A stretch of DNA of 64,000 nucleotides, taken from positions 8,122,001 to 8,186,000 of the forward strand of contig CM114271.1 of the NCBI GenBank assembly GCA_050084515.1, given 5' to 3'. Source of the stretch: Blasia pusilla. Lineage: Eukaryota. The notes under the pieces were generated by a model. It saw only the letters and a list, made by a program, of their open reading frames with translations. It ran no database searches and was not told the DNA's origin. Made by a program: the position numbers and the translations under genes. This document shows positions 2,030 through 45,164 of the stretch, piece by piece (positions within the stretch are counted from its first letter, which is position 1; each line of letters begins with the position of its first letter).

Positions 2030-3214
2030 CTAGTTTTGAAAACCATCTTCAATCAGCTGCCCCATGTCATAGTATTTTCTAATCCTCGATCCATTCACTC
2101 TTGCCGGTAATGCTTCCCCATCTAGTGTAGCCAAAGACAAAGAACCATTCTCAAATACTGAGATTACCTGATAAGGCCCAAGCAGATGTGCAGCTTTCTC
2201 GAAACTTTTGGTGTCGACTATCATACATCAAACACCACGTCCCCATCCTTCATGGATCATGCTTTATTCGGTTATCAAACCTCATCTTCCTTTGTTCTTT
2301 GAACCGCCTTGGTCTTCTCTAATCTTCGCCTTACTCTCCTCCTCTAGGGCATCAATCATATCCAACCTGCTATCTATGCCACCTTCAGGTTGGAAGTGCC
2401 CTTCTAGAGTGTGATCAGTCTTCAACTCCAACTCTACTACCGAGAGAGGGTTCTGCCCATACACCAAGAAGTAGGGACTTTTCCCTGTGGTACTCTTCTC
2501 AGTTGTGTTGTAAGCATGGACAGCTGAAGCTAATTTCCTATCCCAATCTGATTTGTGAGCTGCCACTATCTTGGTCAAAATAGCACCAATGATCCCATTG
2601 GCTCTCTCAGTGAGACCATTAGCCTTAGGGTTGTAAGGTGTGGTCAACCTATGCTTGATTCGGTGCTGCTCTGTTATAGCCTGAATCACCTCATTAATGA
2701 AGTGCAAACCTCTATCACTTACTAACTCTCATGGAGCACCAAACCTCATGAGAATATGCTCATACAAGAACCTCCCAGCAGTTTCACCATCATTCTTCCT
2801 TGTGGCCTTAGCTTCCACCCACTTAGTAGCATAATCAGTGGCTAGAATAATGTATCTATTTCTATGGCCCTTACTAGCAAGAGTGATAGGACCAATGAAG
2901 TCAATTCCCCACTTAGCAAAAGGACCCAAAGGGATGATAGGTGTGAGTGGCCAATGATCCTTAATTGAAGGTTTGCTTGGATGTTGGCAAGGGTCACAAC
3001 TTCTAATGTACTTGTGCACATCTCTATGGAGGGTTGGCCACAAGTACCCTGCAGTTCGAATCTTCTTGATGGTGGTCTTCACTCCAAAGTGACCCCCCTT
3101 CTCTCCTGAGTGGAATGTATGCATGATTCTCAGACTTTCTCCCTTACTCACACACCTTCTCAACCTGTCATCTGGTCCAAGTTTGAACAGCACATCCTCG
3201 ATCAATGCATATGG
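2030..3214 (-). pseudogene. Ty3/Gypsy integrase fragment, cut at its 5' side by MULE copy A
   Basis: Zn-binding H..H..CxxC (GHFGVKTT...CDPCQ), core KWGIDFIGP, TTPYNPKANGLTER, GPY motif; in-frame stop near 2729; homologous to ORF 45149-46486. Confidence 0.9.
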
Positions 3215-5589
3215 GGGGGCTGGTATTCTGGCAGGAGAGAGTAAGAGAGGAGAGGAAGAGAGGAAGAGAGGAGAGTCTCTCTTCAAAAAAAGGGGCCAAA
3301 TCCGCCTCCTCTCTTCAAAACTTTTTGACTTATTTGAAATTTTTGTTTGCTTTCAAATTCAGGAAATCTTTAGAAGAGAGTATTTCGTGGTCCACATTTG
3401 GCCCTAAAAAAACCTCCTCTTTCCTGGGGGCGAGAAAAAAGGAGACATCATAAGACCACCCTAAACATTTTTCCATCACTGCCCATGTGAGCCTAAGTTT
3501 CTTAACATTCCCTGTCTCGGTCAACAAAAAGCAAGTGCCCTTGGTATTTTTGTTGAGGACCACCCGGATGGGTACCTCTCTTTGCAGGATTGTTGCCTGC
3601 ATCATGGCCTCCCTAAATTGCCCCATAACCAACTTTTCGCTTCGGTTATGAATGGTGTCTGCTCAAGACCAACTTTCTGAAATGTGAAAAATCAGATCCT
3701 AAGGCTTAAACCGAGAAGTCGCACCTCCCAACCCGTAAGAAAGCTCACCATAAGAAACGAAAGATTTTTAGAAGTGATTTTCTTCCACCCTGCACCCACG
3801 ACGATCTAACGGGTTGGGAATCCGAAATGGCAATCCGAGAGGTAGTAGGAATCCTGCACATCTTAGACAAGAAAAGAAGCCTACAACTGGTTGGACGAAT
3901 GAAGGGGAACGAGCCAAAAGCCAAGAAGCCCGCCACAATGCGCCGGTTGGTCTCACCGGATAGAGTCCGATCACTCAAGCAAATCAACCTGTCGGAATCC
4001 GAGAGGTTGCCTGGAAATGGTTAAAAAGTTGCAGTGGGCAAAAAGCAAAAAGTCGGAATCATACGGGTTGCAGAATTGTAATTCTGATTAGCTAAAAGAA
4101 CACAATCCATAAGTCCAAAAACATATTCCAGAAAACTTTTACAAACACCATTATGGGTTGAAAAAATCTCGTCCTTTATTACCTCCGAAGGAACCTCGGA
4201 AATGTACATTGAACCTAGTCTATGATTTCTTCAGCCTCGTCATCTACAAATTTACTCCTAACTCTCCTCGATGACAGTACCAAAGGAATGTCCTGGGATT
4301 CAAGTGGCTCCTCTGGCCGATTGTAGACGGGGATCGAAAATGTTGGCGAATTCGAGAGCCTTGGCCCCTCCCTAGGTACACCATAACGGTCCCATGTAAC
4401 TTATCTCGAGTCCCACCGCCTTCCTCGGCAATATACCTTGTACGCTCCGCAATGTGACACCCATCCAGTATCAATATCTGCTCCGTCCCCGGTAATACCA
4501 CTATGGCAACCGCACAGGTAGAAGGAATCCAACACGTCTAAGAGAAGAAAAGAAGCCTATGCCTGCCTTTATGAGTTGAGGGGAAGATGCCAAGGGAAGA
4601 AGCCCGCCAGACTGCCTGATCCGAAAGGGTTCGATCAGGCAACTTGTCGGAATCAGACAGGTTGCCTGGAGGTGGTAAAAAGGGTCCAGTGGTCAAAAAG
4701 CGAAAAGTTGAAAGGAGGATAAATCCGACGGGTTGCTTGCAGTGGTCATAAAGTGAAAATTGCAAGCAGGAGAAATCCGACGGGTTGAAAAGTAGAAGAC
4801 CGTGGAGTACATAGATGATCACATTCGAAAAGACAAAATGATCAGCAAACATTTACAAGCACCACCATCGATCAAAAAAATCTTCTACTTTATATCATCC
4901 GAAGAAAGCTCGGAACTATACATTTGATCTATTCTATGAAATCTTTTGCCAAATTATAAAAAAATCCCTACTCCAAACGCTGCAGTCAAGCTGGGTCGTT
5001 GAGTTCTTTGAACTCACTCGTCATCGTTCGAGAGCTCTTGCAAAATCACTTTTGGCCTTGCCCTCCTGATTTTGGGAATCGTTGGAAGTGACGATGGAGT
5101 CACTACCAAGGGTGGCTCTGGAACCGGACCTCTCGGCTTTGGTGGAGAGTTGTACGCCCCAACGAGCCTTTCGTATTCTGCCTTTGCCTCCTTGCAAAGG
5201 TCAAACGATTCGCCTTCCCTCGAGGAGCAGAATGTTCCCGCCACTCGCCAGCGCCCTCGATACTCGCCCCTGAAAGGCCCACTAAGTCGAACACCAAGTC
5301 ACCCGGCCTTGAGCGAGCTCGATGAGCGTTGCATCGTGGTGGCGACATTTCCCTTCATCCCAGAAGTGGGGTACTGTCTTGCATGTAAATTCCCGGGGGG
5401 GAATTGTACAAACTATCTAAGCTGTACCCATCTGAGCATGGATCCACAGGATCCTGGATCTTGAACACTGGAAATTGTGCTCGGGCGAACGGCAAAGACA
5501 CGAGGGAGTGGTCCATCGAAAATCAAGACGAAACAATGTCGAAACTAAAGAAGTCCCTTGAGAAGATTTTCAATAATCGACTTTGATCA

Positions 5590-5950
5590 ACTGCTTGAGT
5601 CCGACGGGTTGTTTTGTCCGGACCAACCCGTCGGAACCCGACGGGTTGCGATTGCTTTTGGGTTTTCCAAGTTGATTTTGGTTTTCGGATGCAACCGTCG
5701 AAGGCGACAGTTGTTACCGCCTAGACGAGCCCATGCTCGCCCGAGAGCAACCGTCGATAGCAACCCGTTGCTATTAGACGGGTTGCATCCAAAACCAAAA
5801 TCAATCGCAACCCGTCGGGTTCCGACGGGTTGCGTACACCGCGTTTTCCTGTGTATGTGGGAAAGATGCAACCCGTCGAAACCGACGGGTTGCTCTCACC
5901 GAGCATGGTCGCTCGAGCCAAAGAACCCGCCGCTTCCGACGGGTTGCTTA
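5590..5950. repeat. 27-bp palindrome array (intron of accessory gene, copy A)
   Basis: Several GCAACCCGTCGGnnnCCGACGGGTTGC variants with irregular spacers. Confidence 0.9.
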
Positions 5951-7919
5951 CGGACAAAAAAAACACAGATTGACTGATTCTACACATCATAACAAGATAA
6001 TTGAAATTATTGTACAGGAATTGAGCCTTACCCGAATTTGACTCGTCGCGGATCGGAGTGGGTACTCGTTTTTGATGATCCACGATTGTGCCGTCCTCCA
6101 CTTTAGCGACCTCTTGACGCACTTGAGGTTGAAGAGCTCGCCCTCGCTCCCTCGGCCAACACCAAGAAGCAGCCCTCGCCACTCGAGATAGGCGTGCGCA
6201 AAGGAGAACAAAAGTGCACTGGTCATAAGTGAGCGCAGATTCCACTCAGTGTACCTCGTCGCCGGATTTTCGCCCCAAAGTCGCAACCCCGAGGGCAGAT
6301 CGGCGATCAAGAGATCCACCGCAACCTCTTCCACCACTACATTCACCGTCCAGGTAGCGTGCCCGTTTCGTTGGAGCTTCCGTCCCAGCGTTGTCAATTT
6401 TTTGATGGCAGTTGTCGACGCTTGAGAATCAAGTCGTTTCGGCTCATCCAAGAAAGAGGTGAATCGAAGGAGGACGCTTGTCCGGTCGTTGTTTGTCTGT
6501 GTCTTCCCAAGGATGATGGGTGTATTCTCCTTGGGACAACCGGGCACCTCTCGCTTCCGCTTCTCCTAGTCGGGGACGGCTTGGTCGGGTTTCTATGACC
6601 TCGGATTTCGTGGCGTTTTCTTCGCCGAGGACCTGGTCCGACCCTCTCTCCTCGCTCGTCCGGACGATTCCGCCTCTGGCCTCTCATCTTCAGGCTCTCT
6701 TTGGGAAGTCTCGGCCTCTGAATTTTTCCCTCCCCTCGCCTTGCCTTTGAGACCCGCTGTGGATTTGTCTTTGGCTATCCGGACCTTGGAAGCCAACTCA
6801 GCTATTGTTGAGTCGTTGAAGTCGAGCCAAATGGGGCAATTCTCCACCTCCCAATCCGACATGTGCTGACCCATCTCCACGTCGTACATGGAGAATGTCT
6901 CTGCATCCGGCGGCGAAGCCCACAATTTCAAGGCTGCCGGTAATTTTCCCCACGTACCTGCGTTCTTACACTGGACGAGGTACCTGAATACCATCCGTTG
7001 GGCAGCTTTTAGTCAAACATTATCGGCCGTTTGCTCCTATAGATCTCGCTTCTTCTTCGCTTGATCCCGTTTGTTACCCTCTACTTCTTCGTCAAGCTCT
7101 GCCTGAGGGAGGACGCAAACCTTGAACATGGTCTTGAATCCAGGGTTCTTGGTTGGCTTGTCGGATGTCGTCGAGCCAAACCTCGTAATCTCAGAACTTT
7201 CAATGTTTGCTTCGGCGGAATGGGCTCTAATCTTCGAGCTCCGCTTGCAAACCGCCCAAAGACGGACTTCGATTACCCGCAACGCGTCCCAGAACGACCA
7301 TTCGCGTAGCCAATGCAAGATCACTGGATCGGACACACCCGGAGGATGGTGTGCCGCCCTCTTGTGGGCCTCGAGCCCTCGAGACTGATTTTCATCGATC
7401 GTATCCTCTGAACTTCGCTAATCCCGGATAACGCATAAAAAAGATGCACGCGATCCGACACTTTCTCCCCAATGTGACCATGCGGATCTTCATCCCTCTT
7501 CCGCCGACGCTTGATAATTGCCTTGAGCTCCTTGTAGAACTCGGACCAAGTTCGGGGTTGAGAATCCGATGTATCGCATCTTGCTCGCCGTGTATTTCGT
7601 TGCGGAAGATACAAAGAACTTGATGAATTTGGCGCCGACGCAGATACCTTCTCCCTCCGCTCGGCTCGATTGCAACGCTTTTCTTCATGGGCCTGTATCT
7701 TTGACCAGCAAAGGATGGTTACGGTGCATCTTGAGAAATAAACTTGTTTGCCCAAGTTTTCTTCTTAATCTGAGCACCCTTTGCAAGCATCCGATTGACG
7801 AGGGCACGCCAAGAACCCTGTACTCTCCCGGGTGCGTCGTAAGCACCTTCCTCACCCGATCGCAGTCTTGGATCCAATGGTGGGTGACATTCCCTTCCGA
7901 TACAATCCTGCACATCCAA

Positions 7920-8600
7920 ACTCAACCCGTCAGGAAATAACATGGGTTCCGCAGAACCCGCCCGGACTCGACGGTCGTTATGACTTCAGGGTCGGATTCT
8001 AGCAACAAGCTAAATGATGCAACCCGTCGGAGTCCGACGGTTTGCATTGAGATTTGCTAATGCCAGGTAAGCAACTCGTCGGACTCCAACGGGTTGTTGG
8101 ACTGCACGCTTTTTCGGATGTTTTTTTAAGATTGCAACTCATCGGACTCCGACGACTTGTTTGATTGAACATAGATTTAACTAGTTTTTGGCCCAAAGCA
8201 AACCGTCGGAGTCCGACGGGTTGCTCGATAGGCCGCCTTGTGAGGTTGTTTTTTAAGAATGCAACTCGTCCAACTCGTTGGGCCAAAAACTAGTTAAATC
8301 TATGTTCAATCAAACAAGTCGTCGGAGTCCGACGAGTTGCACTCTTCAAAAAACATCCTCACAAGGCGGCCTGTCGAGCAACCCATCGGACTCCGACGGT
8401 TTGCTTTGGGCCAAAAACTAGTTAAATCTTTGTTCCATCAAACAAGTCATCGGAGTCCGACGAGTTGCAATCTAAAAAAAACATCCGGAAAAGCGTGCAG
8501 TATAGCAACCCGTCGGAGTCCGACGAGTTGCTTTCTGCCTAAACAAACCTAACCCATTCATCAATCGAGCAACTTGTCGAAGTCCGACGAGTTGCAAAAG
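7920..8600. repeat. 27-bp palindrome array (intron after the ParB exon, copy A)
   Basis: About 10 variants, e.g. 8019-8045 gcaacccgtcggagtccgacggtttgc. Confidence 0.9.
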
Positions 8601-10210
8601 TGTTAAAGATACTCACGTGTTCATGGCATGCATTGCCATCTCCACCGTCGCCATGTGATGAGGGTATGGGTGAAGGACCACTGCCTTCACGCAGAAATGT
8701 GCCTCCAATGAGTTGGGGCGCTCCTCCGCAAACTTGGTCCATGCCATGAACCTATGATTTCCATCCCAGATGAAGAAATGCAGATTCCTCATCCGGCTGA
8801 ATTCCGTGCCCTCAACTTGCCTTCTGAAGTCCTGGTCTCGCATCCTCAAAAATGTGTCGAGATTTTCCAAGTCCTCCTCAGTAACCAAAGCTTGGGTTCC
8901 ATGCTCGTCGTAAGGCTGAACATAGAAGGGAGGAAAGCTGTCCACGTAGGATGTTGTCACCGCCGATTGTTTTAGCTTTGCGATGTCCTCGTCGGACTGT
9001 ATTTCGCGCACGTATTCCATTGTCCTTAATCGGCAGAGTGGAATCCTCGGGCGTTAGGCCTCCATGAGTGCCATCTGCTTTACCACATGTCAGAACCGGG
9101 ACAAGAGGAATAAGCTACACTGAAATCCCAATGAATTGCAATACACATAATTAAAAAAACCCAGAACCTCTCTTACCCGCTCGAAAATGGAGTCGGTTTC
9201 TTGACCAGCTAACTTGTCTGAGACAGGGGCTGGCAAATCGATTGGGAACTCGTCAATCCGATAGAGGTCGATGTCCTCCGCCGGGCTTGGAGTCGAGAAT
9301 GACCGCTCTCCGGCTTCTTCGGCCATGTCCACCATCTCCACGCTGGCGGTCCTCATGACCTCGTCGTCATCGATTTGAATTGGTGTTGTTTCCACTATGT
9401 TGATTGTGTCCCGGACTTCGTGGGGGATATTTCCCGCATCTCAACACTTGCGGTTGGACGGGCTGGGCTATCGTCAATGGCTATCGCTTTTTCCCGCCTC
9501 GCTTTAGCCAATTCTGCCCTCCTCACCGACGCGTCCAGACGCTTCTTCTCTCTCTTTTCATCGGCGATCCTTTTCTTCAAGGCCTGCGACGTCTGGGCCT
9601 CTTTGTTCTGTTTATCTAGCGCCGCTTGAATACGTCTCGCCAGAAGCACTTGGTTGTGCAGCTCCGCTTCCCTTTCCCGCTCCTCGATTTCCTGCTGCCT
9701 AATTTCATTCGCCGAACGAGGCCCAGGAGAAGCTGACGCAGGAGTCCTAATGGACTTGGGAGTGAAGCTCCCAGACTTGTTGGCTTGTGTTTTTTTCCTC
9801 GTCATTTTTGCCGGAAATGCCTCCACCTATGCCCACGACAAATCCCTTGATCAGTCGACTTGCTGATGTCGAGATGGGAGCTCGTCTCACCTTGATGGTT
9901 AGCTCGAATCGTCCCGATACCGCTCGGTCGAACCGTCTCGCTCTCGTTCCCTCCTATCGACTCGCGATGTGTCGCCGCGTGAAATGCCCCTTCATATCTG
10001 ATCAGAAGCTGCGCGGGAGAGTGAGGAGTGAGGACAGAATTGAATGTGTTACAGAATTGGATCCATTGTGTCAGACAATCTCCCCCACCGAATTCATCTT
10101 GTCAGTAAAAATCTGTCAGGAGTATCTGTTTCCTCTTCACTATAAATTAAATATTCTCATTCTCATTCTCATTCTCATTCTCAGTCTCCTCCCGTAGGAA
10201 TCTTCTTGGC

Positions 10211-13200
10211 ATGGATAATTATGTTAAGCTCAGTTGTGGCAGTCATCTGGCGGCCCTTCCTCAATCAGAAATCATTCGACCCCAAGCTCGTGAGTCTTTC
10301 AGAGCAAATGGATGAAAATTTTCATGTCATTCGATTTCTTCTTCAATTGGAACCATCTTTGTATCCAAAGATGTAAGGGTGGAAGGTACGGAAGACATTA
10401 TAGGTGAGACGGTCCAGCCAATAACCTCAGACCGTAAGGTATGGAATCTCCTACCTGTCGCAAATGGTCAATACAGAGTTTACGGCCTGCCCCTGAATTC
10501 GTCTGTTTCCCAAGTAGACGGTCTAGAATTTCCTAGTGCTCCGAGCTCTACGTTTGCAACTCCAAGCTCTGCAGATCCGGCCGACTCCAACCATGACGCC
10601 AGTAACAATGTTGTTTTTCCTGAAGAGATTCCGGATGTTATCAACCTCGAGTGGATCTTTCGGACACCAATCGGGCCCTCTGTCCGCCTACTCGTTCCTC
10701 TTGCGAGTATCAGGCAATAGTTTGCTTTCGTCTCTGCCCTTGAAAATGTTCAAGCGCATCCTTGTCGACGAGTTGCCGCCCACGTACGATGGTAATTGCA
10801 TTTTTGAGTTGCCTCCACTTGCTGCTCCTGCTCAAAAGAAGGATGGAGGACGCCTGAAGGGTATGGACAAAAAGTCTGATTGTCATCGATGGTGCAGGCT
10901 TCAACGGACCAGTGCTTCAATTCCAGATGGTCCTTGGATTGTCTCTCGCCGCCAATGCGTGGGAGCCTTGGAGTGTAGAAGTCCAACATGCCTGTATCTA
11001 GAGCGCAACGGGTGAGTCAATACGTCGCAATTCCCTCCCAAGAATGCAGAAACTCCATATGAGGTCGGTGCCACCATACTGCCGGGAGGCCATCGATGTC
11101 CTCATTGTCAGGCATCGCCCTTCTGCATTGGAGCGTGTCCTGCATACATATTTTTCATTGTCCACGACTTGGGCTCCACGTCAGAGTATACAAGGCTGGC
11201 TGTCCATGTTGGCTCCCACACTCATCCTGTGATCGAAGCAATTCAAAGACACATCAAGGAGGATGTGGCGAAGAAAGTAGCCGAGGTCTTTAGAAACTCT
11301 CCGGGTTCAAAGCCCGGGGTGATCAAGCTCACAACGGCATCACAAATTTGTGAACAATTGCTTGGAATCCCTGGACAGGGCGAGATCACGGCGGTTGAGG
11401 AGAAACAACTCTGGGAAAATCTCGCATTTCTCGCTGATCCTGAATGCTTTGAATTTCTTTGCGTCGATACGAGTTCGGATGGAAAAGACGAAATGGATGC
11501 CATCGCGAGAATCAAGGCCAACTCAGATTTCCATTCATTCAGATATGGCGTTCATGGGCCAAGGAGGCGAGGATCCAGGGCCTATGTCTTCAAAATGTCA
11601 ACCACAGGTCCGTCGAGTGGCCTCGATCTTATAGATCGAATGAGGGAAGGGGAAGATCTTTACGGGAGCTGGGTCAGCTTTGATATTTGCTCTGAGTCTT
11701 TGAACGGATGGTTGACGATGGGTGCTCACGTTTATGACCATGTGGAGAAGGGACTCAAAACTATATTTGTGTGTGAAGTAAAGCGTAAGACGCGTTGGCG
11801 ATTTGAAGATGTCTTTGGTTACTCTTATTGGAGGTGGTGAAGGAAAACAAAAGGCCACCTCCAGAAATTTATGGGTTCATGGCGGACAATGCACAACCTG
11901 GGTGGATTGCTATCCGGGAAGTGTTTTGGGGTGGAGAGGTTCAACCGGAGAGGGAAAGGTCGGATGCTTTCCATTGGCAACTTGATCTCGACCAGTACAC
12001 CAAATCTTGCATCAAGGAGAATAAGAGGACAAAGCATGTCACTCTACTCCAACGCTGCAAGGACAGCAAAACCTTGAAGCATGGCATGGACTACAAGGAA
12101 GAACTTCATGGGTGGTGGAGGAAGCATGCGATTGAGGGGAAGTACAAAGAGTTGTGCTCTTGGTTGAGTTGGTGGACTGTACGTATGAGACAATGGGGAA
12201 ACTTCATGCGGCAGGTGAGTTCACTATTTTGTCTTGTCAAGCTCACGCTGAGAATTATTTGTAAAGTTGTAGCTCAGGGTGAGAAGCGTGGGAATTATAT
12301 GGATTTCAAACCCAAGAAACCAAGCAAGCTGTCGGATGCGACGGGTTGCCCGAGTGTGCAACCCGACGGAAACCGACGGGTTGCCCAAGGGTGCAACCCG
12401 ACGGAAACCAACGGGTTGCATCCAGATGTTTGGTGCAACCCGAGTGTGCAACCCGTCGGGACCCGACGGGTCACAGAGTTGTTCATGGGATGCCTCGGCC
12501 TTGCAACCTGTCGGGTTCCGACGGGTTGTAGTAGGTGGGTTGAAGGTTACAACACGTCGGGACCCGACGGGTCGCAGAGTCGTTCATGGGATGCCTCGGG
12601 CCTGCAACCCGTCTGGTTCCGACAGGTCGCTTATTTCTTTGACTCCTAAGTTATTTTCGTTCCCTTCTAACATTGCCGTCGTTGCAGGGATTGAACGTTC
12701 ATGAAAATGCCCTCTTCCCCAACACAAGTGGAGCAGAAATTGTTCATTCCTCTTGGAGGTTGTCACAAGCATGCCAACGAATTTCACTTGTGGAGGCATG
12801 CTGTCATAAAGGAAAAGGGCCGTCGATCTACGAGCTCTATGTCGTATGGGTATTTTGTGAGATCTCGGTGATGAAAATTGTATGTCGAAGCCTTCAACGG
12901 TGCGTGAATCGAACTCCTTTCGAGCAAGACGTACACATAGGTGGGGATATTCGGTAATGCGGGTTTCAAGACGCCCCATACTGAGATGGTGGTAGAGCAG
13001 TCGAACGAGACTCGTGGAGACCAGATAAGTATCTTGACTTGAGCGGTGAAGAGGCAAAGATCGAGGAACAAATCCGGTGATTGATTTGGATGAGGAAATT
13101 ACACCGCCAGGTATTAGGGGACCGGACCCGTCCCAAATTCGTGATGGAGTTACTTCTCCAAAATCAGTGAATGTTTTATTTCAAAAGCCCTCCGTTGGTG

Positions 13201-14120
13201 GAAGTTTGCGACATCCCGTCACGGGGTGGTTCAACAATATGGGATTCCGGTAATGGAGGTGGATTGCAACCTAAAACCGTGGCATATATCTCGGAGCAAC
13301 CCGGGCGTGGACCCCTGCAGGCAGGATCGATGGCATTAGGAGAGCATGCGGCACTTTCCTAAATAAGAATGCACAAGGACTAGACGACCTCTGCTGGGTT
13401 TTGGGGACTCAAAACCTTTGATCGTTCACGAGGACGAGGGGATCAATTGAAGTACTTCTTCGCCCAAATGAATCTTGCGCTTTCCGGAAGTCTTATCCAC
13501 CGCCATTGGAGCTCCGGGAATACCCCAAGATTTGGCCCATGGCATGAGCACGAATCGCACTCAAGACGAAGTGGACAATCTTACAAGTGCCGGTTTCAGA
13601 CTCGTAGACGGGGGAAGTTCGGAGCATGTTCGCATTACAGAGACCTTTGCATTTTGTATTCAACCCAAGATTGATGTCAACATGTACCCGGAGAAGGTGT
13701 ATGATCTCAATCCATTATTTCTGTTTGAGTCTAGAAATGGGGTGAAGAGAAACAGAATGTGCAAGCCAACGGTGGAGAGAGCAAAGCGAAGTTGCAAAGC
13801 AGACTCGGGAGGCAAAAATGGAGATCATCGCCACGAAAGATGTCTTGAGTGGCAATGGAATAGGAAGGATGTATTGGGTCAGGAACAACACTGTAAATTC
13901 AAGTGTCACAGGGGTGTATGTGGTGCACATCTGTTGCTTTCCCACATGTTCATGTGATGACTTTGTCCAAAGAGAGACAAGTGGCAAAAGGTATTTCCTT
14001 GTAAGCACATGTACTATGTGTTCTTTGGTAGTTTTAAGAGAGTCGGAGGTAGGAGTAGGAATCCACCAACCACCAATTGTCCCTCAAAGAAGTTGAAGTA
14101 TTTTAAACAAACCACTTTGA
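10211..14120 (+). pseudogene. GCM-fold / MULE DDE / SWIM transposase (copy A), intron 12215-12687
   Basis: RQCVGALECRSPTC...CPHC...HVGSHTHP; WVSFD, FMADNA, DAFHW, GAEIVH; C-terminal CSCDDF...C; GTGAGT...TTGCAG intron; stops and frameshifts. Confidence 0.8.
12325..12630. repeat. 27-bp palindrome array within the transposase intron (copy A)
   Basis: gcaacccgacggaaaccgacgggttgc-type units. Confidence 0.85.
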
Positions 14121-14532
14121 GGATGCAAAGGAGGTTTTAGATTGTACTTTTATTTTTTTCTCAACCTTCACTTCGAGCTTGAACTCGATTCAGCCCCGGG
14201 AAAATGGTAGATTATTTGAGACCTTGGATGGAAAAAGTGATTGGTTCCACACTTATGATTCCATGATTTTTCAGTTTTCTAAATTTTGTGCAATTTGCAA
14301 CTCGTCGGACTCGGAGGGGTTGCCAAAATATGGAAGAGGAAAAAAAAACTGTGGGATTGCTTAATATATGAACAAAAAAGTGCAAAAAATTTCAAACAAA
14401 ACTTTCCTCTCTTCAACCCAACATGAAACTCTCTTCAAAAAAGAGTATCTATTTGGTTGACCCTAGTTTCTCTCTCTCCTCTCTCTCTCTCCTCTCTTCC
14501 TCTCTTCCTCTCCTCTTACCGAGTCTGGTTCC

Positions 14533-14735
14533 CAAGGGACTCAAGGACATACTGTGCAAGAGTGCCCCCTTCAACGAGATTTACGTTGGGTACAAGAAGA
14601 CCCATCTATGGAGGAGGGATGGTATCAAGCAGATCAGTGGGAGGGATGCTACGCAGTTCAGGAAATTTCACGGACTAGTGCTCCTCGAAGCTGGATTCTC
14701 CAATATGTACCACATGGGTATGGAGAGCAGAGGCT
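14533..14735 (+). pseudogene. Ty3/Gypsy gag fragment (from mid zinc knuckle onward)
   Basis: GTQGHTVQECPLQRDLRWVQEDPSMEEGWY matches GTQGHTSQECHTQRDLRWIQEDPTIEEGWY of the gag at 48770-49348. Confidence 0.85.
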
Positions 14736-14979
14736 AGAGTTCGGATGTTCCGCTTGGCGCTCGTTTGGTTATGAGGGTCATTGCTCTTGCCTAGTCTTGT
14801 TGGCATGCCTCAACGAGAGATATTTTTTGACATGTTTGTGATGATCTTTAGGAGGAATGGACATTCTCAGCTCCACTTGTGTTGGGGCAAAGGGCATTTT
14901 TGTGAATGTTCAGTCCCTACATAGGAAAAATTATCAATTGATGGAGGGAACGCTAGGTGTTCAACACTTACAAAATGTC

Positions 14980-15590
14980 AAAATCCAACAAGTTGCAAGT
15001 TCTTCAAATCTTAAGTCCTTGTTGGATGTCAACATTCATATTGCAACCCATCGGAATCGGATGGGTTGCAAGCAAGCTACAAGAATAGGGAACAAAATCT
15101 AACTACAACTCGTCGGATTCCGATGGGATGCAAGAAGAATTTAGTTGAAAACAAGAAGCAAACCGTCAATCAGAAGTATGAAGAACATAAGAACTTGCAA
15201 CCAGTCAGATTGTGAGTAATCTACTTGAGAATACTCTGCTTGCAACACGTCAAAATCCGACGAGTTGCAAGCCGTCGGATTCAAACGAGTTGGAAGATTA
15301 AATTTTCAAGATAAGAAGCAACCTGTCGGATTCTGACGGGTTGCAGCCTAAACTTTTTCGCAAAAAAAGTTGCTTGCAATCTGTCGGATTCGTACAAGTT
15401 GCAACCTCACACTTTGAGAAAATGTTGAACTCACCTACCACATAAAGTTTCCCCATTGCCTCATACGGATGGTCCACCAACTGAGCCAAGAACACAACTC
15501 TTTGTATTTCCCCTCAATTGCATGCGTGATGGTTACTCTTACTGTAGGTGGTGAAGGAAAACAAAAGACCTCCTCCTGAAATATATGGCT
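14980..15590. mobile_element. Rearranged fragments of a diverged subfamily of the same MULE
   Basis: Diverged palindromes; minus-strand HAIEGKYKELCSWLSWWTIRMRQWGNFM piece (about 15430-15527) abutting a plus-strand piece homologous to 11817-11880. Confidence 0.7.
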
Positions 15591-17049
15591 TCTTCCCCTT
15601 CCCTCATTCGATCTATAAGATCGAGGCCACTCGACGGACCTTTGGTTGACATTTTGAAGACATAGGCCCTGGATCCCTCGCCTCCTTGGCCCATGAACTG
15701 CCATCTCCGAATGAATGGAAATCTGGAGTTGGCCTTGATTCTGGCGATGGCATCCATTTCGGCCGTCTTTCCATCCGAGTAACTCAGATATCGACGCAAA
15801 GAAATTCGGAAGCATTCAGGATCAGCGAGAAATGCAAGATTTTCCCAGAGTTGTTTCTCCTCAACCGCCGTGATCTCGCCCTGTCCAGGGATTCCAAGCA
15901 ATTGTTCACAAATTTGTGATGCCGTTGTGAGCTTGATCACTCCGGGCTTTGAACCCGGAGAGTTTCTGTAGACCTCGGCTACTTTCTTCGCCACATCCTC
16001 CTTGATGTGTCTTTGAATTGCATCGGTCACAGGATGAGTGTGGGAGCCAACATGGACAGCCAGCCTTGTATACTCTGACGTGGAGCCCAAATCGTGGACA
16101 ATGAAAAATATGTATGCAGGACACGCTCCAACGCAGAAGGGCGATGCCTGACAATGAGGACATCGATGGCCTCCCGACGGTATGATGGCACCGACCTCGT
16201 ATGGAGTTTCTGCATTCTTGGGAGGGAATTGCAACGTATTGAATCGCCCGTTGCGATCTAGATATGGGCATGCTGGACTTCTACACTCCAAGGCTCCCAC
16301 GCATTGGCGGCGGGAGACAATCCAAGGACCATCTGGAATTGAAGCACTGGTCCATTGAAGCCTGCACCATCGATGACAATCTGACTTTCTATCCATACCC
16401 TTCAGGTGTCCTCCATCCTTCTTTTGAGCAGGAGCAGCAAGTGGAGGCAACTCAAAAATGCAATTACCATCGTACGTGGGCGGCAACTCGTCGACAAGAA
16501 TGTGCTTGAACATTTTCAAGGGTAGAGACGAAAGCAAACTATTGCCTGATACTCGCAAGAGGAACGAGTAGGCGGACAGAGGGCCCGATTGGGTCCGACA
16601 GATCCACTGAGGTTGATAACATCCGGAATCTCTTCAGGAAAAGCAACATTGTTACGAGCGTGCGAAGTTGGAGTCAAAGCCGGATCTGCAGAGCTTGGAG
16701 TTGCAAACGTAGAGCTCGGAGCACTAGGAAATTCTAGACCGTCTACTTGGGAAACAAACGAATTCAGGGGCAGGCCGTAAACTCTGTATTGACCATTTGG
16801 TAGAGTTAGGAGATTCCATACTTTACGGTCTGAGGTCACTGGCTGGATTGTCTCACCTATTATGTCTTCCGTACTGTCCACCCTAACATCTTTGGATACA
16901 AAGATGATTCCAATTTGGAGAAGAAATCGAACAGACAGAAAATTTTCATCCACTACTATGAAAGACTCACGAGCTTGGGGTCGAATGATTTCCGATTGAG
17001 GAAGGGCCGCCAGATGACTGCCACAAGTGACCTTAACATAATTATCCAT
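15591..17049 (-). pseudogene. 5' half of GCM/MULE transposase (copy B)
   Basis: MDNYVKVTCGSHL start; 339-aa ORF 15539-16558 with GCM-like Cys/His pattern; truncated before the DDE core. Confidence 0.8.
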
Positions 17050-17101: not shown

Positions 17102-18078
17102 AATTTATAGTGAATAGGAAACAGATACTCCTGACTGATTTTTACTGACAAGATGAATTCGGTGGGTGACATTGTCTGACACAATGGATCCAATTCTATA
17201 ACACATTCAATTCTGTTGCAATATGTTACCGGATTTGGGAAGCAAAGGGTTGCGCATCACACTTGGAACCCGTCGGAGTCCTGGTAACTCAAAAATTACC
17301 CGAAGCTAACTGAAGCCTGCAACCCGTCGGCATCGGACGGGTTGCACGCTTCTACTAAACAATGTCGAAGCGAGCAACCCGTTGCTCTCCAACGAGTTGC
17401 TCGGATACCGCTCCTTCTTGCCCGAAGATGCCGGAGGCGTGCAAATCGTCTGATCCTGACGAGTTCCGCGGGTGCCTCGCCTTTTAGCCCAAAGACGACA
17501 AGGCGTGCAACCCGTCGCCCTCCAACGGGTTGCGCAAGGGCCTCGCCTTGTGGTGCAGCCAACCAGACTCCGACGACTTGCACGGGAAGCCCTCGTTCTT
17601 AACCCTTGATGAGGGAAGCGTACAACCCAACGGTCTCTGATGGATTGCCCAAGATACGTCCCGTTCCCGTCCCAAACACGGCGGAGGCGCGCAACATGTC
17701 GGTCTCCGACGGGTTGCGCAGGTACCTCACGTTCTTTTCCAAAGACGACGGAGGTGCTCAACCCGTTGGTCTCCAATGGGTTGCTCGCACACGTGGCAAC
17801 GTACCCAGGATGGCGGAGGCGCGCAACATGTCGGTCTCCGACGGGTTGCGCGGGTACCTTGCGTTCTTTTCCGAATACGACGGAGGCGCTCAACCCGTCG
17901 GTCTCCGACGGGTTGCTCGCGCACGTGGCGACGTACCCAGGATGGCGGAGCTGCGCAACCTGTCGGACTCCGACGGGTTGCCATTTTTCACGTCCGGATT
18001 TCCGTAACATCCGGCACGTTGCCGTCAAAAGGACGACGGGACCCAACGGTCAGCCCAACGGCTAGAAAAGTATAAATA
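17102..18078. promoter_or_regulatory. Bidirectional promoter region: divergent TATA boxes flanking a palindrome array with a 132-bp higher-order repeat
   Basis: TATAAATT (minus, 17102-17109) faces the transposase; TATAAATA (plus, 18071-18078) faces the accessory gene; gcggag unit recurs at 17681, 17813 and 17945; same layout in copies C and D. Confidence 0.65.
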
Positions 18079-19554
18079 GGGCAGAAATCGCTCATTTCCG
18101 GTTTCTCATTTCTCGATCTTCATTCCTCACTCTCCCGCGCAGCAGCTGATCACATACGAAGGGGCATTTCACACGGCGACACATCGCGAGTCGATAGAAG
18201 GGAACGAGAGCGAGACCGTTCGACGCAACGACAGCGAGACGGTTCGACCGAGCGATCGCGGAATGATTCGAGCTACCCATCAAGGCGATTCGAGCTCCCA
18301 TCTCGACATCAGCAAGGCGACTGATGAAGGGATTCGTCGTGGACATAGGTGGAGGCATTTCCGGAAAAAATGACGAGGAAAAATCACAAGCCAACAAGTC
18401 AGGAGCTTCACTCCGAAGTCCATTAGGACTCTGCGTCGGCTTCTCTTGGGCCTCGTTCGCGAATGAAATTAGGCAGGAAATCGAGGAGCGGAAAGGGAAG
18501 CGGAGATGCACAACCAAGTGCTTCTTGCGAGACGTGTTCAAGAGGCGCTAGATAAAGCGTAAGCAGAGAGGCGGAGACGTCGCAGCCTTGAAGAAAAGGA
18601 TCGCCGGCGAAAGAGAGAAAAGAAGCGTGACGGGGCGTCGGTGAGGAGGGTAGAATTGGCTAAATCAAGGAGGGAAAAAGCGATAGCCATTGCGATAGCC
18701 GAGCCCGCCCAACCGCAAGTGTTGAGATGGGGGAAATGTCCCCACGAAGTCCGGGACACAATCAACATAGTGGAAACACGAAGTTGAAATCGATGACGAC
18801 GAGGTCATGAGGACCGCCAGCGTGGAGATGGTGGACATGGCGAAGAAGCCGGAGAGCGGTCATTTCGACTCAAGCCCGGCGGAGGACATCGACCTCTATC
18901 GGATCGACGAGTTCCCGTCGATTTGCGGCCCTGTCTCGACAAGTTAGTGGTCAAGAAACCGATCCCATTTTCGGCGGGTAAGAGAGGTTCGGGTTTTTTG
19001 AATTATGTGAATTGCAATTCATTGGGATTTCAGTGTAGCTTATTCCTCTTGTCCGGTTCGACGGTGGTGGTAAAGCGGATGGCACTCATGGAGGGCCCAA
19101 CGCCCCGAGGATTCCACTCTGCCGATTGCGGACAATGGAATACGTCCGCGAAATTCAGTCCGACGAGGACATCGCGAAGCTAAAACAATCGGCGGCGACA
19201 ACATCCTACGTCGATAGCTTTCCTCCCTTCTATGTTCAGCCTTACGACGAGCATGGAACCGAAGCTCTGGTTACCGAGGAGGACTTGGAAAAGCTCGACA
19301 CATTCTGGAGGATGCGAGACCAGGATTTCAGAAGGCAAGTTGAGGGCACGGAATTCAGCTGGATGAGGAATCTGCATTTCTTCATCTGGGACGGAAATCA
19401 CAAGTTCATGGCGTGGACCAAGTTTGCAGAGGAGCGGCCCAACTCATTGGAGGCACATTTCTGCGTGAAGGCAATGGTCCTTCATCCATACCCTCATCAC
19501 ATGGCGACGGTGGAGATGGCAATGCATGCCATGAACACGTGAGTATCTTTAACA

Positions 19555-20080: not shown

Positions 20081-22209
20081 CCCATGTAATTTCCTGACGG
20101 GTTGAGTTTGGATGTGCAAGATTGTATCGGAGGGGAATGTCACCCACCATTGGATCCAGGACTGCGATCGGGTGAGGAAGGTGCTTACGACGCACCCGGG
20201 AGAGTACAGGGGGTTCTTGGGCGATGCCCTCGTCAATCAGATGCTTGCAAGGGGTGCTCAGATTAAGAAGAAAACTTGGGCAAATAAGTTTATTTCTCAA
20301 GATGCAGCCATAACCATCCTTTGCTGGTCGAAGATACAGGCCGTGAAGAAAAGCGCTGAAGTGGAGCTGGAGCGGAGGGAGAAGGTATCTGCGTCTGAGC
20401 GCGCCAAATTCATCCAAGCTACGATTATCTCAACGAAATACACAGCGAGCAAGATGCAGCCATACATCAGCATTCTCAACCCCGAACTTGGTCTGGAGTT
20501 CTACGAGGAGCTGAAGGCGATTATCAAGCGCCAGCGGAAGAGGGATGAAGATCCGCATGGTCGGATTGGGGAGAAAGTGTCGCTGGATCACGTGCATCCG
20601 TTTGCGTTGTCCGGGATAAGCGAGTTTAGGAGGATACGACTAATGAAAATCAGTCTCGAGGGCTCAGAGGCCCTAGAAGAGGGCGGCACACCATCCTCCG
20701 GATATGTCCGATCCAGTGATCTCGCATTAGCTAGGCGAATGGTCATTCTGGGACGCGGTGCGGGTAATCGGGAAGTCCGTGCTGGACGGTCTGCAAGCGG
20801 AGCTCAGAAGATTAGAGCCAATTCCGTCGGAAGCAAACCTTGAAAGTTCTGGAGATTTCGAGGTTTGGCTCGACGACATCCGGGACAAGCCAACCAAAAA
20901 CCCAGGATTCAAGACCATGTTCAAGGTTTGCGTCCTCCCTCAGGCAGAGCTTGACGAAGTAGAGGGGAACAAACAAGATCAAGCAAAGAAGAAGCGAGAT
21001 CTACAGGAGCAGACGGCCGATTCTGTTCGACTAAAAGCTGCCCAACGGATGGTCTTCAGGTACCTCGTCTAGTGTAAGAACGCAGGTACGTGGGGAAAAT
21101 TACCGGTAGCCTTGAAATTGTGGGCTTCGCCGGCGGATGCAGAGACATTCTCCATGTAAGACGTGGAGATGGGGCAGCACATGTTCGATTGGGAGGTGGA
21201 GAATTGCCCCATTTGGCTCGACTTAAACGACCCTGAAGACATCACGGATAAGGACCTACGAGTGCTTCATGATGCAGTGGCCTCAGGACAAGACGACATC
21301 CCCAATTTCGTCGGCCAAGACTTCTTCGGAGGAGATGCGTAAGAGCAGGCCCACGAGACAGTGAGTTGGCTTCAAAGGTCCGCACAGCCAAAGACAAATC
21401 CACAGCGGGTCTCAAAGGCAAGGCGAGGGGAGGGAAAAATTCAGAGGCCGAGTCTTCCCAAAGAGAGGCTGAAGATTCAAGGCGGAATCGTCCGGACGAG
21501 CGGGGAGAGATTGTCGGACCAGGTCCTCGGCGAAAAAAACGCCACCAGAATCTGAGGTCATAGAAACCCCCACAAGCCGTCCCCAGGCTAGGGAGAAGCG
21601 GAAGCGAGAGGTGCCCGGGTTGTCCCAAGGAGAATACAGCCCATCATCCTTGGGAAGACACAGACAAAAAACGACTCGGACAAGCATCCTCCTTCAATTC
21701 ACTCCTTTACTAGATGAGCTGAAGAGCTTCACTTCTCAAGCGTCGACACCAGCCATCGAAAAATTGACAACGCTGGGACGGAAGCTCCAACAAAACGGGC
21801 ACGCTGCCTGGACGGTGAATGGAGTGGTCGAAGAGGTTGCGGCGGATCTCTTGATCGCCGATCTGCCCTCGGGGTTGCGACTTTGGGGCGAGAATCCGTC
21901 GGACGAGGTACCTGAGTGGAATGTGCCGCTCTCTTATGACCAGATTGCACTTTTGTTCTCCTTTGCATATGCCTATCTGAGTGACAAGGGCTGCTTCTTG
22001 GTGTTGACTGGAGGGAGCGAGGACGAGCTCTTCAACCTCCAGTGCGTCAAGAGGTCGCTAAAGTGGAGGACGGCACAATCGTGGATCATCAAAAACAAGT
22101 ACCCACTCCGATCCGCGACGAGTCAGATTCGGGTAAGGCTCAATTCCTGTACTATAGTTTCAATTATATTTTAATTATGTGTATAATGAGAGTCAATCTG
22201 GGTTTTTTT

Positions 22210-22595: not shown

Positions 22596-25024
22596 AAGTC
22601 AGTTATTGAAAATGTTCTCAAGCGACTTCTTTAGTTTTCGACATTGTTTCCAGCGTCTTTGATTCTGAGATGGACCACTCCTACGCTCATCGCTTCGTTC
22701 GGCCCGAGCATAATTTCCAGGTGTTCAATGAGGGTGGCTCTGGTCCGGAAGATCGATTCAGGATCCTGTGGATCGATGCTCAGATGGGTACAGCTTAGAT
22801 AGTTTGTACAATTCCCCCCCGGGAATTTACATGCAAGACAATACCCCACTTTTGGGAGGAAGGGAAAAGTTGCCAGCCCTAATGCAAATGCTCATCGAGC
22901 TCTGCTCAAGGCCGGGTGACTTGGTGTTCGACTTAGTGGGACTTTCAGGGGCAAGTATCAAAGGCGCCTGGCAGAGTGGCAGGAATATTCTCTGCCTCGA
23001 GGGAAGGCAGGAACAGTTTGACCTTTGCAAGGAGGCAAAGGCAGAATACGAAAGGCTCGTTGGGGCGTACAACTCTCCACCGAAGCCGAGAGCTTCCGTT
23101 CCAGAGCCACCCTTGGTAGTGACTCCATCGTCACTTCCAACGATTCCCAAAATCAGGAGGGCAAGGCCGAAAGTGATTTTGCAAGAGCTCTCGGACGATG
23201 ACGAGTGCATTCAAAGAACTCAACGACCCAGCTTGACTGTAGCGTTTGGAGTAGGGAGTTTTTTTATAATGAGGCAAAAGATTTCATAGAATAGATCAAA
23301 TGTACAGTTCCGAGCATTTTTCGGATGATATAAAGCAGAAGATTTTTTCGATCGATGGTGGTGCTTGTAAATGTTTGCTGATCATTTTTTGTCTTTTCGA
23401 ATGTGATCGTCTATGTACTCCACAGACTTCTATTTTGCAACCCGTCGGATTTCTCCTGCTTGCAACTTTCACTTTATGACCACTGCAACCCGTCGAGTTT
23501 CTCCTCCTTGCAACTTTTCGCTTTTTGACCACTGCACCCTATTTACCACCTCCAGGAAACCTGTCTAATTCCGACAGGTTGCCTGATCGGACCCTTTCCC
23601 TGTTGGTCCAACTTAAGAGGCAGTCTGGCAGGCTTCTTCCCTTGGCACCTTCCCCTCAACTCGTAAAGGCAGGCGTAGGCTTCTTTTCTTCTCTCAAACG
23701 TGTTGGATTCCTTCTACCTGTGCGGTTGCCATAATGGTATTACCGGGGACGGAGCAGATATTGATACTTGATGGGTGTCACATTGCAGAGCGTACAAGGT
23801 ATACTGCCGAGGAAGGCGGTGGGACTCGAGACAGGTTACATGGGACCGTTATGGTGTACCTAGGGGGGGGGCCAAGGCTCTCAAATTCGCCAACATTTTC
23901 GGTCCCCGTCTACAATCGGCCAGAGGAGCCACTTGAATCCCAGGACATTCCTTTGAAATTGTCACCGAGGAGAGTTAGGAGTAAATTTGTAGATGACGAG
24001 GCTGAAGAAATCATAAACTAGGTGAAATGTACATTTTCGAGGTTCCTTCGGAGGTAATAAAGGACGAGATTTTTTCAACCCATAATGGTGTTTGTAAAAG
24101 TTTGCTGGAGTATGTTTTTGGACTTGTGGATTGTGTTCTTTTAGCTACTCAGAATTACAATTCTGCAACCCGTATGATTCCGACTTTTTGCTTTTTGCCC
24201 ACTGCAACTTTTTAACCATTTCCAGGCAACCTGTCGGATTCCGATAGGTTGGCTGCTTGAGTCATCGGACTCTATCCCGGTGAGACCAACTTCTGGCGCA
24301 TTGTGGCGGGCTTCTTGACTTTTGGCTCGTTCCCCTTCATTCGTCCAACCAGTTGTAGGCTTCTTTTCTTGTCTACGATGTGCAGGATTCCTACTACCTG
24401 TCGGATTGCCATTTCGGATTCCCAACCCGTTAGATCGTCGTGGGTGCAGGGTGGAAGAAAATCACTTCTAAAAATATTTCCTCTCTTATGGTGAGCTTTC
24501 TTACGGGTTGGGAGGGGTGCAGCTTCTCGGTTTCTCAGCCTTAGGATCTGATTTGTTCACATTTCAGAAAGTTGGTCTTGAGCAGACACCATTCATAACC
24601 GGCAGAAAGTTGGTTATGGGGCAATTTAGGGGAGGCCATGATGCAGGCAACAATCCCTGCAAAAAGAGATGTACCCATCCGGGTGGTCCTCCAACAAAAA
24701 TACCAAGGGCACTGCTTTTTTGTTGACCGAGACAGGGAATGTTAAGAAACTTAGGCTCACATGGAGAGTGATGGAAAAATGTTTAGGGTGGTCTTATGAT
24801 GTCTCCTTTTTTCTCGCCCCCAGGAAAGAGGAGGTTTTTTTAGGGCCAAATTTGGACCACTAAATACTCTCTTCTAAAGATTTCCTGAATTTTAAAGCAA
24901 ACAAAAATTTCAAATATGTCAAAAAGTTTTGAAGAGAGGAGGCGGATTTGGCCTTTTTTTTTTAAGAGAGACTCTCCTCTCTTCCTCTCCTCTCTTACTC
25001 TCTCCTGTCAAAATACCTGCCCCC

Positions 25025-45060: not shown

Positions 45061-45164
45061 CTATCACCTACCATCATTGGTTGATGAAGAAATTGCAATG
45101 ACGGTGGCGGCAAAACCAAAGTACGTGGTGGCGGTGCAAGTTAGAGAATCAACGATGGTCGTGG

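Follow-up and report, generated by a model that had tools for sequence, protein, structure and literature searches.

Some transposons encode proteins with the potential to bind and chemically mark the transposon's own DNA; this class has been noticed only recently and is so far described from algae, and the algal papers reportedly credit green-algal cases of such accessory proteins to Iyer et al. 2011. In Ectocarpus, the 21.5-kb family Sola1-1_Ec32 encodes a 1104-aa protein with ParB-like and DNA methyltransferase domains opposite the transposase, and this protein has been suggested to bind the transposon that encodes it and to modify it (PMC12477816). In the Plavaka elements of the red alga Bostrychia, the accessory protein PAG2 combines PF01555 with SET, PAG3 combines ParB homology with a 2-oxoglutarate (2OG) oxygenase, and tandem inverted-repeat arrays adjoin PAG3 (bioRxiv 10.1101/2025.02.11.637652). 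In Bacillus cereus, the ParB domain of the ParB-methylase Bce_0392 nicks DNA (PMC5512222), and the methylases of phage ParB-terminase loci are reported to be the source of clades of eukaryotic methylases (PMC4738411). The locus described here lies in a 64,000-nt stretch of Blasia pusilla DNA (contig CM114271.1, positions 8,122,001 to 8,186,000 of the forward strand), which is called the window below and to whose positions all coordinates refer. It contains four copies of a transposon resembling Mutator-like elements (MULEs), and in copy A a minus-strand exon encodes a ParB/Sulfiredoxin (Srx)-like domain. We consider it likely that this domain, the helices behind it and a PF01555-like domain together form an accessory protein of the ~11-kb MULE-like transposon, of the class described in algae.

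It is the PF01555-like C-terminus that places the ParB-like protein in this transposon accessory class. Judged from published descriptions, the locus shares with the Sola1 class the presence of ParB-like and PF01555-type domains in one protein of ~1,100 aa, with the algal class the position of the gene on the strand opposite the transposase in a large DNA transposon, and with Plavaka the tandem inverted-repeat arrays beside the gene. The main differences are that the hosts there are algae, whereas the relatives here point to a land-plant-like lineage with liverworts and ferns, and that the carriers there are Sola1 or Plavaka (EnSpm) elements, whereas the carrier here is MULE-like. Furthermore, Plavaka splits between the SET-bearing PAG2 and the oxygenase-bearing PAG3 the two domains that are found in one protein here. 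The bacterial and phage ParB-methylases likewise have a ParB-like domain followed by a beta-class amino-methylase, and phage methylases occur among the structural neighbours of the N-terminal domain; however, the protein in the window differs from them in a helical spacer of ~600 aa, in a DLP[ST]G motif IV and in having no detectable sequence similarity in the N-terminal domain. No report of a ParB-like plus methylase-like protein in land plants or in MULEs was found in the literature searched, which did not cover most subscription journals. By analogy, the protein may be regarded as a land-plant, MULE-borne addition to the algal-type ParB-like plus methyltransferase accessory proteins. If this is true, the class extends to land-plant lineages, with relatives in liverworts and ferns, and to a Mutator-type carrier.

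A preliminary description of the locus had placed at 8613-9080 a ParB/Srx-like domain with an intact GxxRxxA motif, on its own exon in a eukaryotic transposon. These coordinates were correct to a few bases: as judged from the splice sites, the open reading frame (ORF) and the predicted fold, the exon of copy A occupies 9077-8617 on the minus strand (461 nt), beginning in phase 0 and breaking off 2 nt into a codon. Its start follows from the upstream intron, which spans 9176-9078 (donor GAGCGG/GTAAGA, acceptor AAAG/CAG). The 3' donor lies at 8617/8616 and reads AACAC/GTGAGT in copy A and GTAAGT in copy C, and the following exon begins at 7907, behind TGTGCAG/G. The junction that results from splicing, in which ...AMHAMNT is joined to IVSEGNVTHHWIQDCDR, is collinear with liverwort proteins reading AMHNLNASSHATVQYDWIQDAER. 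Within the exon, the open frame runs from 9053 to 8613 on the minus strand and encodes 146 aa before a stop, the frame without the stop being 9053-8616. Its translation reads RPRIPLCRLRTMEYVREI...FFIWDGNHRFMAW...AMHAMNT, also written as RPRIPLCRLRTMEYVREI...HFFIWDGNHRFMAW...VEMAMHAMNT, and is followed by the stop. The motifs follow each other in the order IPLCRL, VR, FIWDGNHRFMAW and AMHAMN. The codons from I4-P-L-C-R8 through V15-R16 (9006-9044, minus strand) cover the N-terminal strand and a VR pair resembling box I of ParB, with the Cys7 codon at 9033-9035 on the same strand. The codons for D97-G-N-H-R101 (8751-8765, minus strand) encode the GxxR-type signature at the N-terminus of the predicted helix 99-111, and the literal GxxRxxA of copy A is G98-N-H-R101-F-M-A104. 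The splice sites and the element copies bear out that the domain has its own exon in a multi-intron gene within a DNA transposon. The stretch is a conserved, spliced coding exon under past selection. An ORF arising by chance was considered and rejected on ratios of non-synonymous to synonymous substitution (dN/dS) of 0.08-0.13 among the copies, on 109 relatives, and on [DE]GNHR in 89 of these.

Where the preliminary description had listed copies A, B and C, a tblastn search over the window finds four copies of the domain exon. Copy A (9053-8616, minus strand, 100% identity) carries the motif FFIWDGNHRFMAW, and copy B (19105-19539, plus strand, 95% identity) reads DGNHK, so that the arginine-to-lysine exchange noted earlier in B holds. 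Copy C (32226-31792, minus strand, 92% identity) reads through from its acceptor and carries VFIWDGNHRFMAW; its DGNHR is as previously given, while the first F of the earlier motif string is V in this copy. Copy D (61137-60706, minus strand, 68% identity) has decayed and contains stops and a frameshift. In pairwise comparison, copies A, B and C show 24-43 nucleotide differences over 435 nt and no indel, and the dN/dS values are 0.09, 0.08 and 0.13. Such low values together with the absence of indels indicate purifying selection in the lineages that gave rise to copies A-C. The signal stems from active ancestors of the copies. In copy A, an in-frame TAA (9056-9054) stands three codons ahead of PRIPLC, position 69 is L where 66 of 68 full-length domains have W, and the helical and methylase exons downstream contain frameshifts. 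For these reasons, the word intact applies to the GxxRxxA motif of copy A and not to its gene. Copy B has the best preserved downstream exons of the four, and in it the reading phase of the upstream exon is mismatched and the next acceptor is CAA, not CAG. Copy C is without the stretch matching 5517-8386 of copy A, which contains the helical and methylase motif-IV exons.

A HMMER scan of 1.84 billion representatives (E<=1e-3) detected 109 relatives, the best with E 1.6e-21 at 38% identity, and another 7, all from ferns and 714-1008 aa in length, were obtained when long proteins were searched with a profile. Among the relatives, the named ones are confined to the liverwort Riccia sorocarpa and the ferns Adiantum nelumboides and A. 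capillus-veneris, which makes a land-plant-like nuclear genome likely for the window. There are dozens of Riccia paralogues in one genome, many of them fragments, and 6 proteins in Adiantum nelumboides. By name, none of the 109 and 7 matches is prokaryotic (20 clusters were looked up, 6 of which are Riccia). The preliminary description had proposed a horizontal acquisition, and such an origin, from prokaryotes or phages, is plausible by analogy with the prokaryote- or phage-type architecture. Of the 109 relatives, 78 have exactly the pentapeptide DGNHR and 11 have EGNHR, while the other 20 have single-residue variants or are fragments lacking the motif region. Even subfamilies as diverged as those of liverwort and ferns retain the motif. 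Conservation was counted in 68 full-length domains, namely that of copy A and those of the 67 proteins, out of 116, that span profile positions 8-135. In these, the N-terminal region is kept at P5 (66), L6 (67), C7 (67), R8 (59), V15 (64) and R16 (63), followed by Y36 (67) and F76 (68); the motif region is kept at G98 (63), N99 (67), H100 (65), R101 (61) and W105 (64), and N145 in 64, whereas A104 is kept in merely 42. The family signature, as read from these sequences, is IPLCR...VR...(D/E)GNHRxxxW...MxxxN. In addition, Cys7 in the first strand is present in 67 of the 68 domains, and its conservation exceeds that of most of the GxxR motif. We know of no counterpart of this cysteine in descriptions of the ParB or DGQHR motifs. 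Moreover, some of the database gene models contain fusions: in a liverwort protein of 361 aa (P0146) and a fern protein of 714 aa (P0157), pieces of the family are fused to plant peroxidase (PF00141) and retrotransposon gag (PF03732). These fusions are probably annotation chimeras across neighbouring repeats.

An AlphaFold2 model built from an alignment of the family (A1) has a predicted local distance difference test (pLDDT) score of 88.9 and a predicted template-modelling score (pTM) of 0.83. In this model, the strand 93-95 leads into the helix 99-111, with G98-N-H-R101 at the helix start. Such an arrangement is expected of the ParB/Srx superfamily, whose alpha+beta core has a GxxR-type motif where a helix begins behind a beta-strand. 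Among the listed matches of a Foldseek search against the PDB, the top one is Noc (7ol9, E 2.3e-3, probability 1.00), and further ones are ParB with CDP or CTPgammaS (6sdk, 7bnr, 7bnk, 7bm8), KorB and PadC. The listed matches also include sulfiredoxins (TMt up to 0.63), SbnI, the free serine kinase, 1vk1 and 2hwj, the last of which we take to be a member of the ParB/Srx superfamily; TMq for these PDB structures is 0.36-0.48. In Foldseek, the same families come out on top with another model, built for a liverwort homologue of 275 aa (pLDDT 80.8). In the viral structure library BFVD, the matches are ParB-like nuclease, ParB/Srx and DndB-like giant-virus proteins (TMq up to 0.54), and among them are two phage methylases, the DNA methylase of Mycobacterium phage Vincenzo and a putative modification methylase. 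With two independent models that place ParB, Noc, KorB, Srx and ParB-like nuclease on top, the ParB/Srx fold named in the preliminary description stands, and neither an unrelated fold nor a loss of the motif in diverged subfamilies was found. From the models, the domain very probably belongs to the ParB/Srx structural superfamily.

The branch of the superfamily is another matter, for the preliminary description had read GxxRxxA as the nucleotide-binding arginine patch of ParB CTPases and sulfiredoxin and had inferred a possible CTP/NTP-gated clamp or switch. ParB CTPases have a box I with QPR, a box II or arginine patch GERRxRA and a box III ENLQR. Here, the patch is reduced to (D/E)-G-N-H-R-x-x-A/x, in which R101, preceded by N-H, is the sole Arg, and by eye V15-R16 and A-M-H-x-x-N145 stand at the places of box I and box III. 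The PF02195 (ParBc) profile gave no match for the exon at E<=10 and none for the 51 members of alignment A1 at E<=1, the threshold used for profile scans run member by member on these sequences. Nor did Pfam yield a match to any other ParB-clan family for the exon. In the same scans, TIGR03187 (DGQHR) matched 4 of the 51 members (best E 0.001), TIGR04172 one, PF14072 (DndB) two (best E 0.066), DUF1015 four (best E 0.0056) and phrog_1033, a 'ParB-like partition protein', nine (best E 0.0027). The recurring sub-threshold matches are all to families of the ParB clan or with ParB in their names. Moreover, PADLOC returned PD-Lambda-5_A in 3 of 51 (best E 0.012) and PsyrA in one. DGQHR domains are defined by a QR pair, DGQHR and FxxxN, motifs which they have in common with DUF262/GmrS domains, and the latter bind and hydrolyse nucleoside triphosphates (NTPs) (PMC4619093). 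More generally, domains of the ParB superfamily are described as NTPases and/or non-specific nickases (PMC5512222, PMC4619093). With the DGQHR/DndB/DUF262 (GmrS) branch, the domain shares a DG(N/Q)HR pentapeptide behind a beta-strand, a parallel placement of VR and MxxxN for QR and FxxxN, the weak matches to TIGR03187, PF14072 and TIGR04172, and DndB-like giant-virus proteins among its structural matches. It differs from this branch in having Asn instead of Gln, in reaching no family model at cut-off, and in its setting, which is a eukaryotic gene with introns and a methylase-like partner instead of an HNH nuclease partner or a Dnd context. With the ParB/Noc/KorB CTPase clamps, which are the best structural neighbours, it shares the strand-GxxR-helix core and the N-terminal I-P-x-x-x-L strand; however, these have PF02195, the arginine patch and a C-terminal dimerisation domain, whereas the present protein has no PF02195 match, one Arg and a methylase-like C-terminus. 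By its sequence motifs, the signature thus looks more like DGQHR/DndB/DUF262 domains than like ParB CTPases. The identity as a ParB CTPase clamp or switch is not supported, since PF02195 matched none of the 51 members and the weak signals point towards DGQHR, DndB, DUF1015 and phrog_1033, and the CTPase reading goes beyond the evidence.

Behind the ParB/Srx core, the model of the liverwort homologue has helices at 164-261, and the rest of the protein can be followed in copy B. By tblastn, liverwort proteins with lengths of 1191 and 1207 aa can be aligned to this copy, starting at its ParB exon and reaching its last exon, in blocks at 19105-19539 (ParB), 20121-21276 (helical) and 21548-22018 plus 22828-23109 (last exons). 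Full-length relatives have 864-1,207 aa, and judged from the relatives the protein would be ~1,100-1,200 aa long, with ~600 aa of helical sequence between the ParB-like and the methylase-like domains. The helical middle exons of copy B (20118-21339, plus strand) are collinear with liverwort residues ~320-700. They are followed by an exon with a methylase motif-IV-like segment ...LLIADLPSGLRLW... (21689-22171, plus strand; the counterpart in copy A, 5993-6472 on the minus strand, is frameshifted) and by an exon with a motif-I-like segment PGDLVFDLVGLSGAS (22732-23120, plus strand), which matches positions 168-220 of 221 of PF01555 with E 9.6e-4. The counterparts of the latter are 5104-5459 (minus strand, frameshifted) in copy A and 30854-31216 (minus strand) in copy C. 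For PF01555 (N6_N4_Mtase), the relative P0110 reaches 26.2 bits where the cut-off is 26.7 (E 9.4e-6), the ORF 22732-23286 of the window matches with E 9.6e-4, and the threshold is exceeded by 4 of 26 liverwort homologues; some liverwort homologues are labelled 'DNA methylase N-4/N-6 domain-containing' in UniRef. The S-adenosylmethionine (SAM) motif I is recognisable as IDFAGGWGAT, as LELGSGTG in ferns and as DLVGLSGAS in the window. On this sequence evidence, the exon encodes the N-terminal domain of a putative ParB-like plus beta-class PF01555-like protein in one polypeptide, whose C-terminal domain was absent from the preliminary description. When a liverwort protein with the methylase domain was used as query against a phage collection, 3 records of phage methylases matched over a 56-aa stretch at E 6e-3, with no lead to a donor; the one of the three inspected, from phage Lrm1, is a 252-aa methylase without a ParB domain.

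The element copies were delimited by self-comparison of the window. Copy A extends from 3215 to ~14520 on the plus strand (~11.3 kb), copy B is reversed and truncated (25024-15591), copy C extends from 28907 to ~39020, and copy D starts at 55078 and runs past 64000, out of the window. On the left the copies are sharply bordered, and the ends have GA-rich, imperfect inverted repeats. In copy A, the ParB-like/methylase-like gene, which contains the exon above, runs from ~9826 to ~4850 on the minus strand, and a MULE-like transposase gene of several exons lies divergent from it at 10316-14140 on the plus strand. The same layout, with the ParB-like gene opposite the MULE-like gene, is found across the four element copies. 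Several exons of the transposase gene contain, by eye, zinc-finger patterns of the types CxC...HxH and CxC...CxH. Two of its ORFs score 0.91 against PF10551 MULE clusters in protein atlas embeddings, which serve as a lead only, and FLYWCH, FAR1 and ZSWIM clusters rank below MULE for the ORFs of this gene. A 10-bp direct repeat, CCTTGGGGAC, flanks copy C; a target-site duplication was also looked for at copy A, and no direct repeat was found there. In addition, the left end of copy A at 3215 interrupts an ORF for a Ty3/gypsy-type integrase (2285-3298, minus strand; Integrase_H2C2, E 2.2e-14), and the sequence to the right of the copy (14480-15600) shows no clean continuation of this ORF.

The element also contains palindrome arrays. 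A 27-bp palindrome, GCAACCCGTCGG-NNN-CCGACGGGTTGC, occurs 122 times in the window (<=6 mismatches) versus 0 times in each of 10 shuffles; its 12-nt arms are conserved, its 3-nt centre is variable, and in arrays the spacing is 55-67 bp. Nine palindromes at 8019-8599, ~64 bp apart, lie in the intron that follows the ParB/Srx exon (7908-8616, minus strand), and further arrays lie in non-coding parts of the element at 17319-17981, 33332-34029, 62246-62907, 12358-12630 and 5623-5833. Between the divergent genes, copies B, C and D have ~900 bp with a palindrome array of the variant core GTCGGAGACCGAC (17216-18106, 33201-34122 and 62103-63010, respectively); this stretch is missing from copy A, around 10034-10043. 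Arrays are also found outside the four copies, at 9-179, 15043-15344 and 53522-54758, and for this reason the palindrome may in addition be a component of non-autonomous relatives or of some separate family of repeats.

Taken together, we would propose the following mechanism. The ParB-like domain and the helices behind it would tether the protein to the DNA of its own element, for which the 27-bp palindrome arrays are the best candidate sites, both those in the adjoining and further introns and those in the bidirectional promoter region. The pocket residues PLCR, VR, DGNHR and N145 would bind a nucleoside triphosphate, and this binding could switch DNA engagement or drive nicking. The methylase-like domain might then act on the DNA or the chromatin of the element, leading to self-marking or to anti-silencing. 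That the ParB-like domain is an NTP-dependent DNA-engagement module of some kind, a true CTP-gated clamp included, has in our estimate somewhat better than an even chance. The fuller picture of a eukaryotic ParB-parS analogue, in which an NTP-gated module loads at the palindromes, spreads or clamps, and carries a DLP[ST]G methyltransferase that marks element DNA or chromatin in a land-plant nucleus, is improbable. In any case, the family is well conserved and suited to experiments, with at least 109 members, strong purifying selection, a sharply defined pocket (PLCR, VR, (D/E)GNHR, N) and a candidate DNA target, the palindrome arrays, that adjoins the gene. It makes testable whether a ParB-fold nucleotide switch works in a eukaryotic nucleus, and what the substrate is of a PF01555 domain with DLP[ST]G for DPPY.

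Several observations weigh against the accessory-protein interpretation or against parts of it. For the fold, Foldseek gave no match at E<=1e-3 and query-normalised TM-scores of 0.36-0.54, a sequence search of the PDB gave 0 matches and a profile search 2 irrelevant ones (E 0.062 and 0.67). Moreover, no sequence search reached the curated cut-off of any ParB-clan family, and TIGR03187, TIGR04172 and PF14072 do not match the ParB/Srx exon of the window itself. Foldseek aligns 236-260 columns of the liverwort model to constructs with the ParB N-terminal domain plus helix-turn-helix (HTH), with a root-mean-square deviation (rmsd) of ~17 A and E 0.035-0.2, and because this alignment is loose a ParB-type HTH is not established. 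In the methylase-like domain, the sequences from liverwort, ferns and the window all have D[LM][PS][ST]G as motif IV and not (D/S)PP(Y/F/W). Active PF01555 enzymes have (D/S)PP(Y/F/W) as motif IV and FxGxG as SAM motif I. Because of this motif IV, base methylation may not occur, and a catalytic loop that is conserved yet non-canonical points to another substrate or to a role without catalysis. In the window, each of the four copies is defective, and none can encode the whole protein. The MULE-like gene has no Pfam match at E<=0.01; among 61 ORFs of at least 80 aa in 2500-15500, Pfam found none inside the element, its only relevant match being the integrase of the flanking retrotransposon, and a homologue search with the transposase ORF 11016-11837 gave no match. 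MULEs are recognised by a MULE DDE transposase, a target-site duplication of 9-11 bp and long terminal inverted repeats. The link here is formed by the embedding scores of 0.91 and motifs seen by eye, and the direct repeat flanks copy C only. Since there is no Pfam match and the direct repeat is found at C and not at A, the element is termed MULE-like and not a proven MULE. Finally, palindrome binding, nucleotide binding and any methylation are purely conjectural.

Other explanations were weighed against the accessory-protein reading. In the one closest to the preliminary description, the domain would be a true ParB-type CTPase that binds CTP, dimerises through its N-terminal domains, clamps at a palindrome resembling parS and from there slides over the element. 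The top structural neighbours, which are N-terminal domains of CTP- or CDP-bound ParB and of Noc, fit this, as do the literal GxxRxxA, the palindrome arrays inside the element and adjoining the gene, and the helices behind the domain, where ParB has its HTH. Nevertheless, we hold it to be improbable, given that PF02195 matches none of the 51 members at E<=1, that GERRxRA is reduced to G-N-H-R, that AMHxxN stands at the position of box III (ENLQR in ParB), that the C-terminus is methylase-like and not the ParB dimerisation domain, and that VR, DGNHR and MxxxN parallel the QR, DGQHR and FxxxN of DGQHR domains. Somewhat less unlikely, but still unlikely, is an NTP-regulated, sequence-non-specific nickase or DNase in the manner of Bce_0392, Osa, GmrS and the Pyrococcus ParB-like nuclease, which would nick element or target DNA in transposition or open the DNA for the methylase. 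The architecture is that of the bacterial ParB-methylase whose ParB domain nicks DNA (PMC5512222). The structural matches include 1vk1 and phage proteins with a 'ParB-like nuclease domain', and the invariant Cys7, His100, Arg101 and Asn145 could form an active site. However, apart from D/E97 no acidic metal-binding residue is among the near-invariant columns, and the nuclease activity of ParB-fold domains is weakly characterised in general. Other roles, a passive tether among them, make up the remainder for this domain.

Two further readings take the protein away from the biology of the element, and both are less probable than those above. A fragment of a host gene could have been captured as in a Pack-MULE, with a cellular function and an incidental presence in the element, and capture of host genes by MULEs is indeed well established. 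Yet the homologues are multi-copy within a single genome, with dozens in Riccia and 6 in Adiantum nelumboides, the gene keeps the same place opposite the transposase in all four element copies, and the same arrangement has been described for algal transposons, so that we regard such a capture as very improbable. A sulfiredoxin-type sulfinic-acid reductase or a captured host redox gene has hardly any probability left, even with sulfiredoxin structures among the Foldseek matches (TMt up to 0.63). The catalytic Cys of the sulfiredoxin motif F(G/S)GCHR (PMC4619093) corresponds to Asn99 here, found in 67 of 68 domains, which excludes Srx chemistry, and the domain is fused to a protein of ~1,000 aa with a methylase-like end. 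The sulfiredoxin and the canonical ParB readings were both rejected, the former on the Asn at the Cys position and the latter on the absence of PF02195 and of the arginine patch.

The remainder of the window consists of other transposons of the Ty3/gypsy and hAT types. Between copies B and C, a remnant of a hAT transposase lies at 25749-27349 on the plus strand (DUF659, E 9.6e-25; hAT dimerisation, E 9.7e-8). A Ty3/gypsy retrotransposon with ORFs for gag, zinc knuckle, reverse transcriptase, RNase H and integrase occupies 45152-50027 on the minus strand. Furthermore, an ORF for a C-5 cytosine DNA methylase is located at 43128-43736 on the minus strand (PF00145, E 9.5e-8, 32.3 bits versus a cut-off of 22), and ~1 kb from it, also on the minus strand, there is a reverse-transcriptase ORF at 41675-42019 (RVT_1, E 8.5e-14). 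The PF00145 ORF could represent a C5-methylase carried by a retroelement, or else part of a host DNA methyltransferase.

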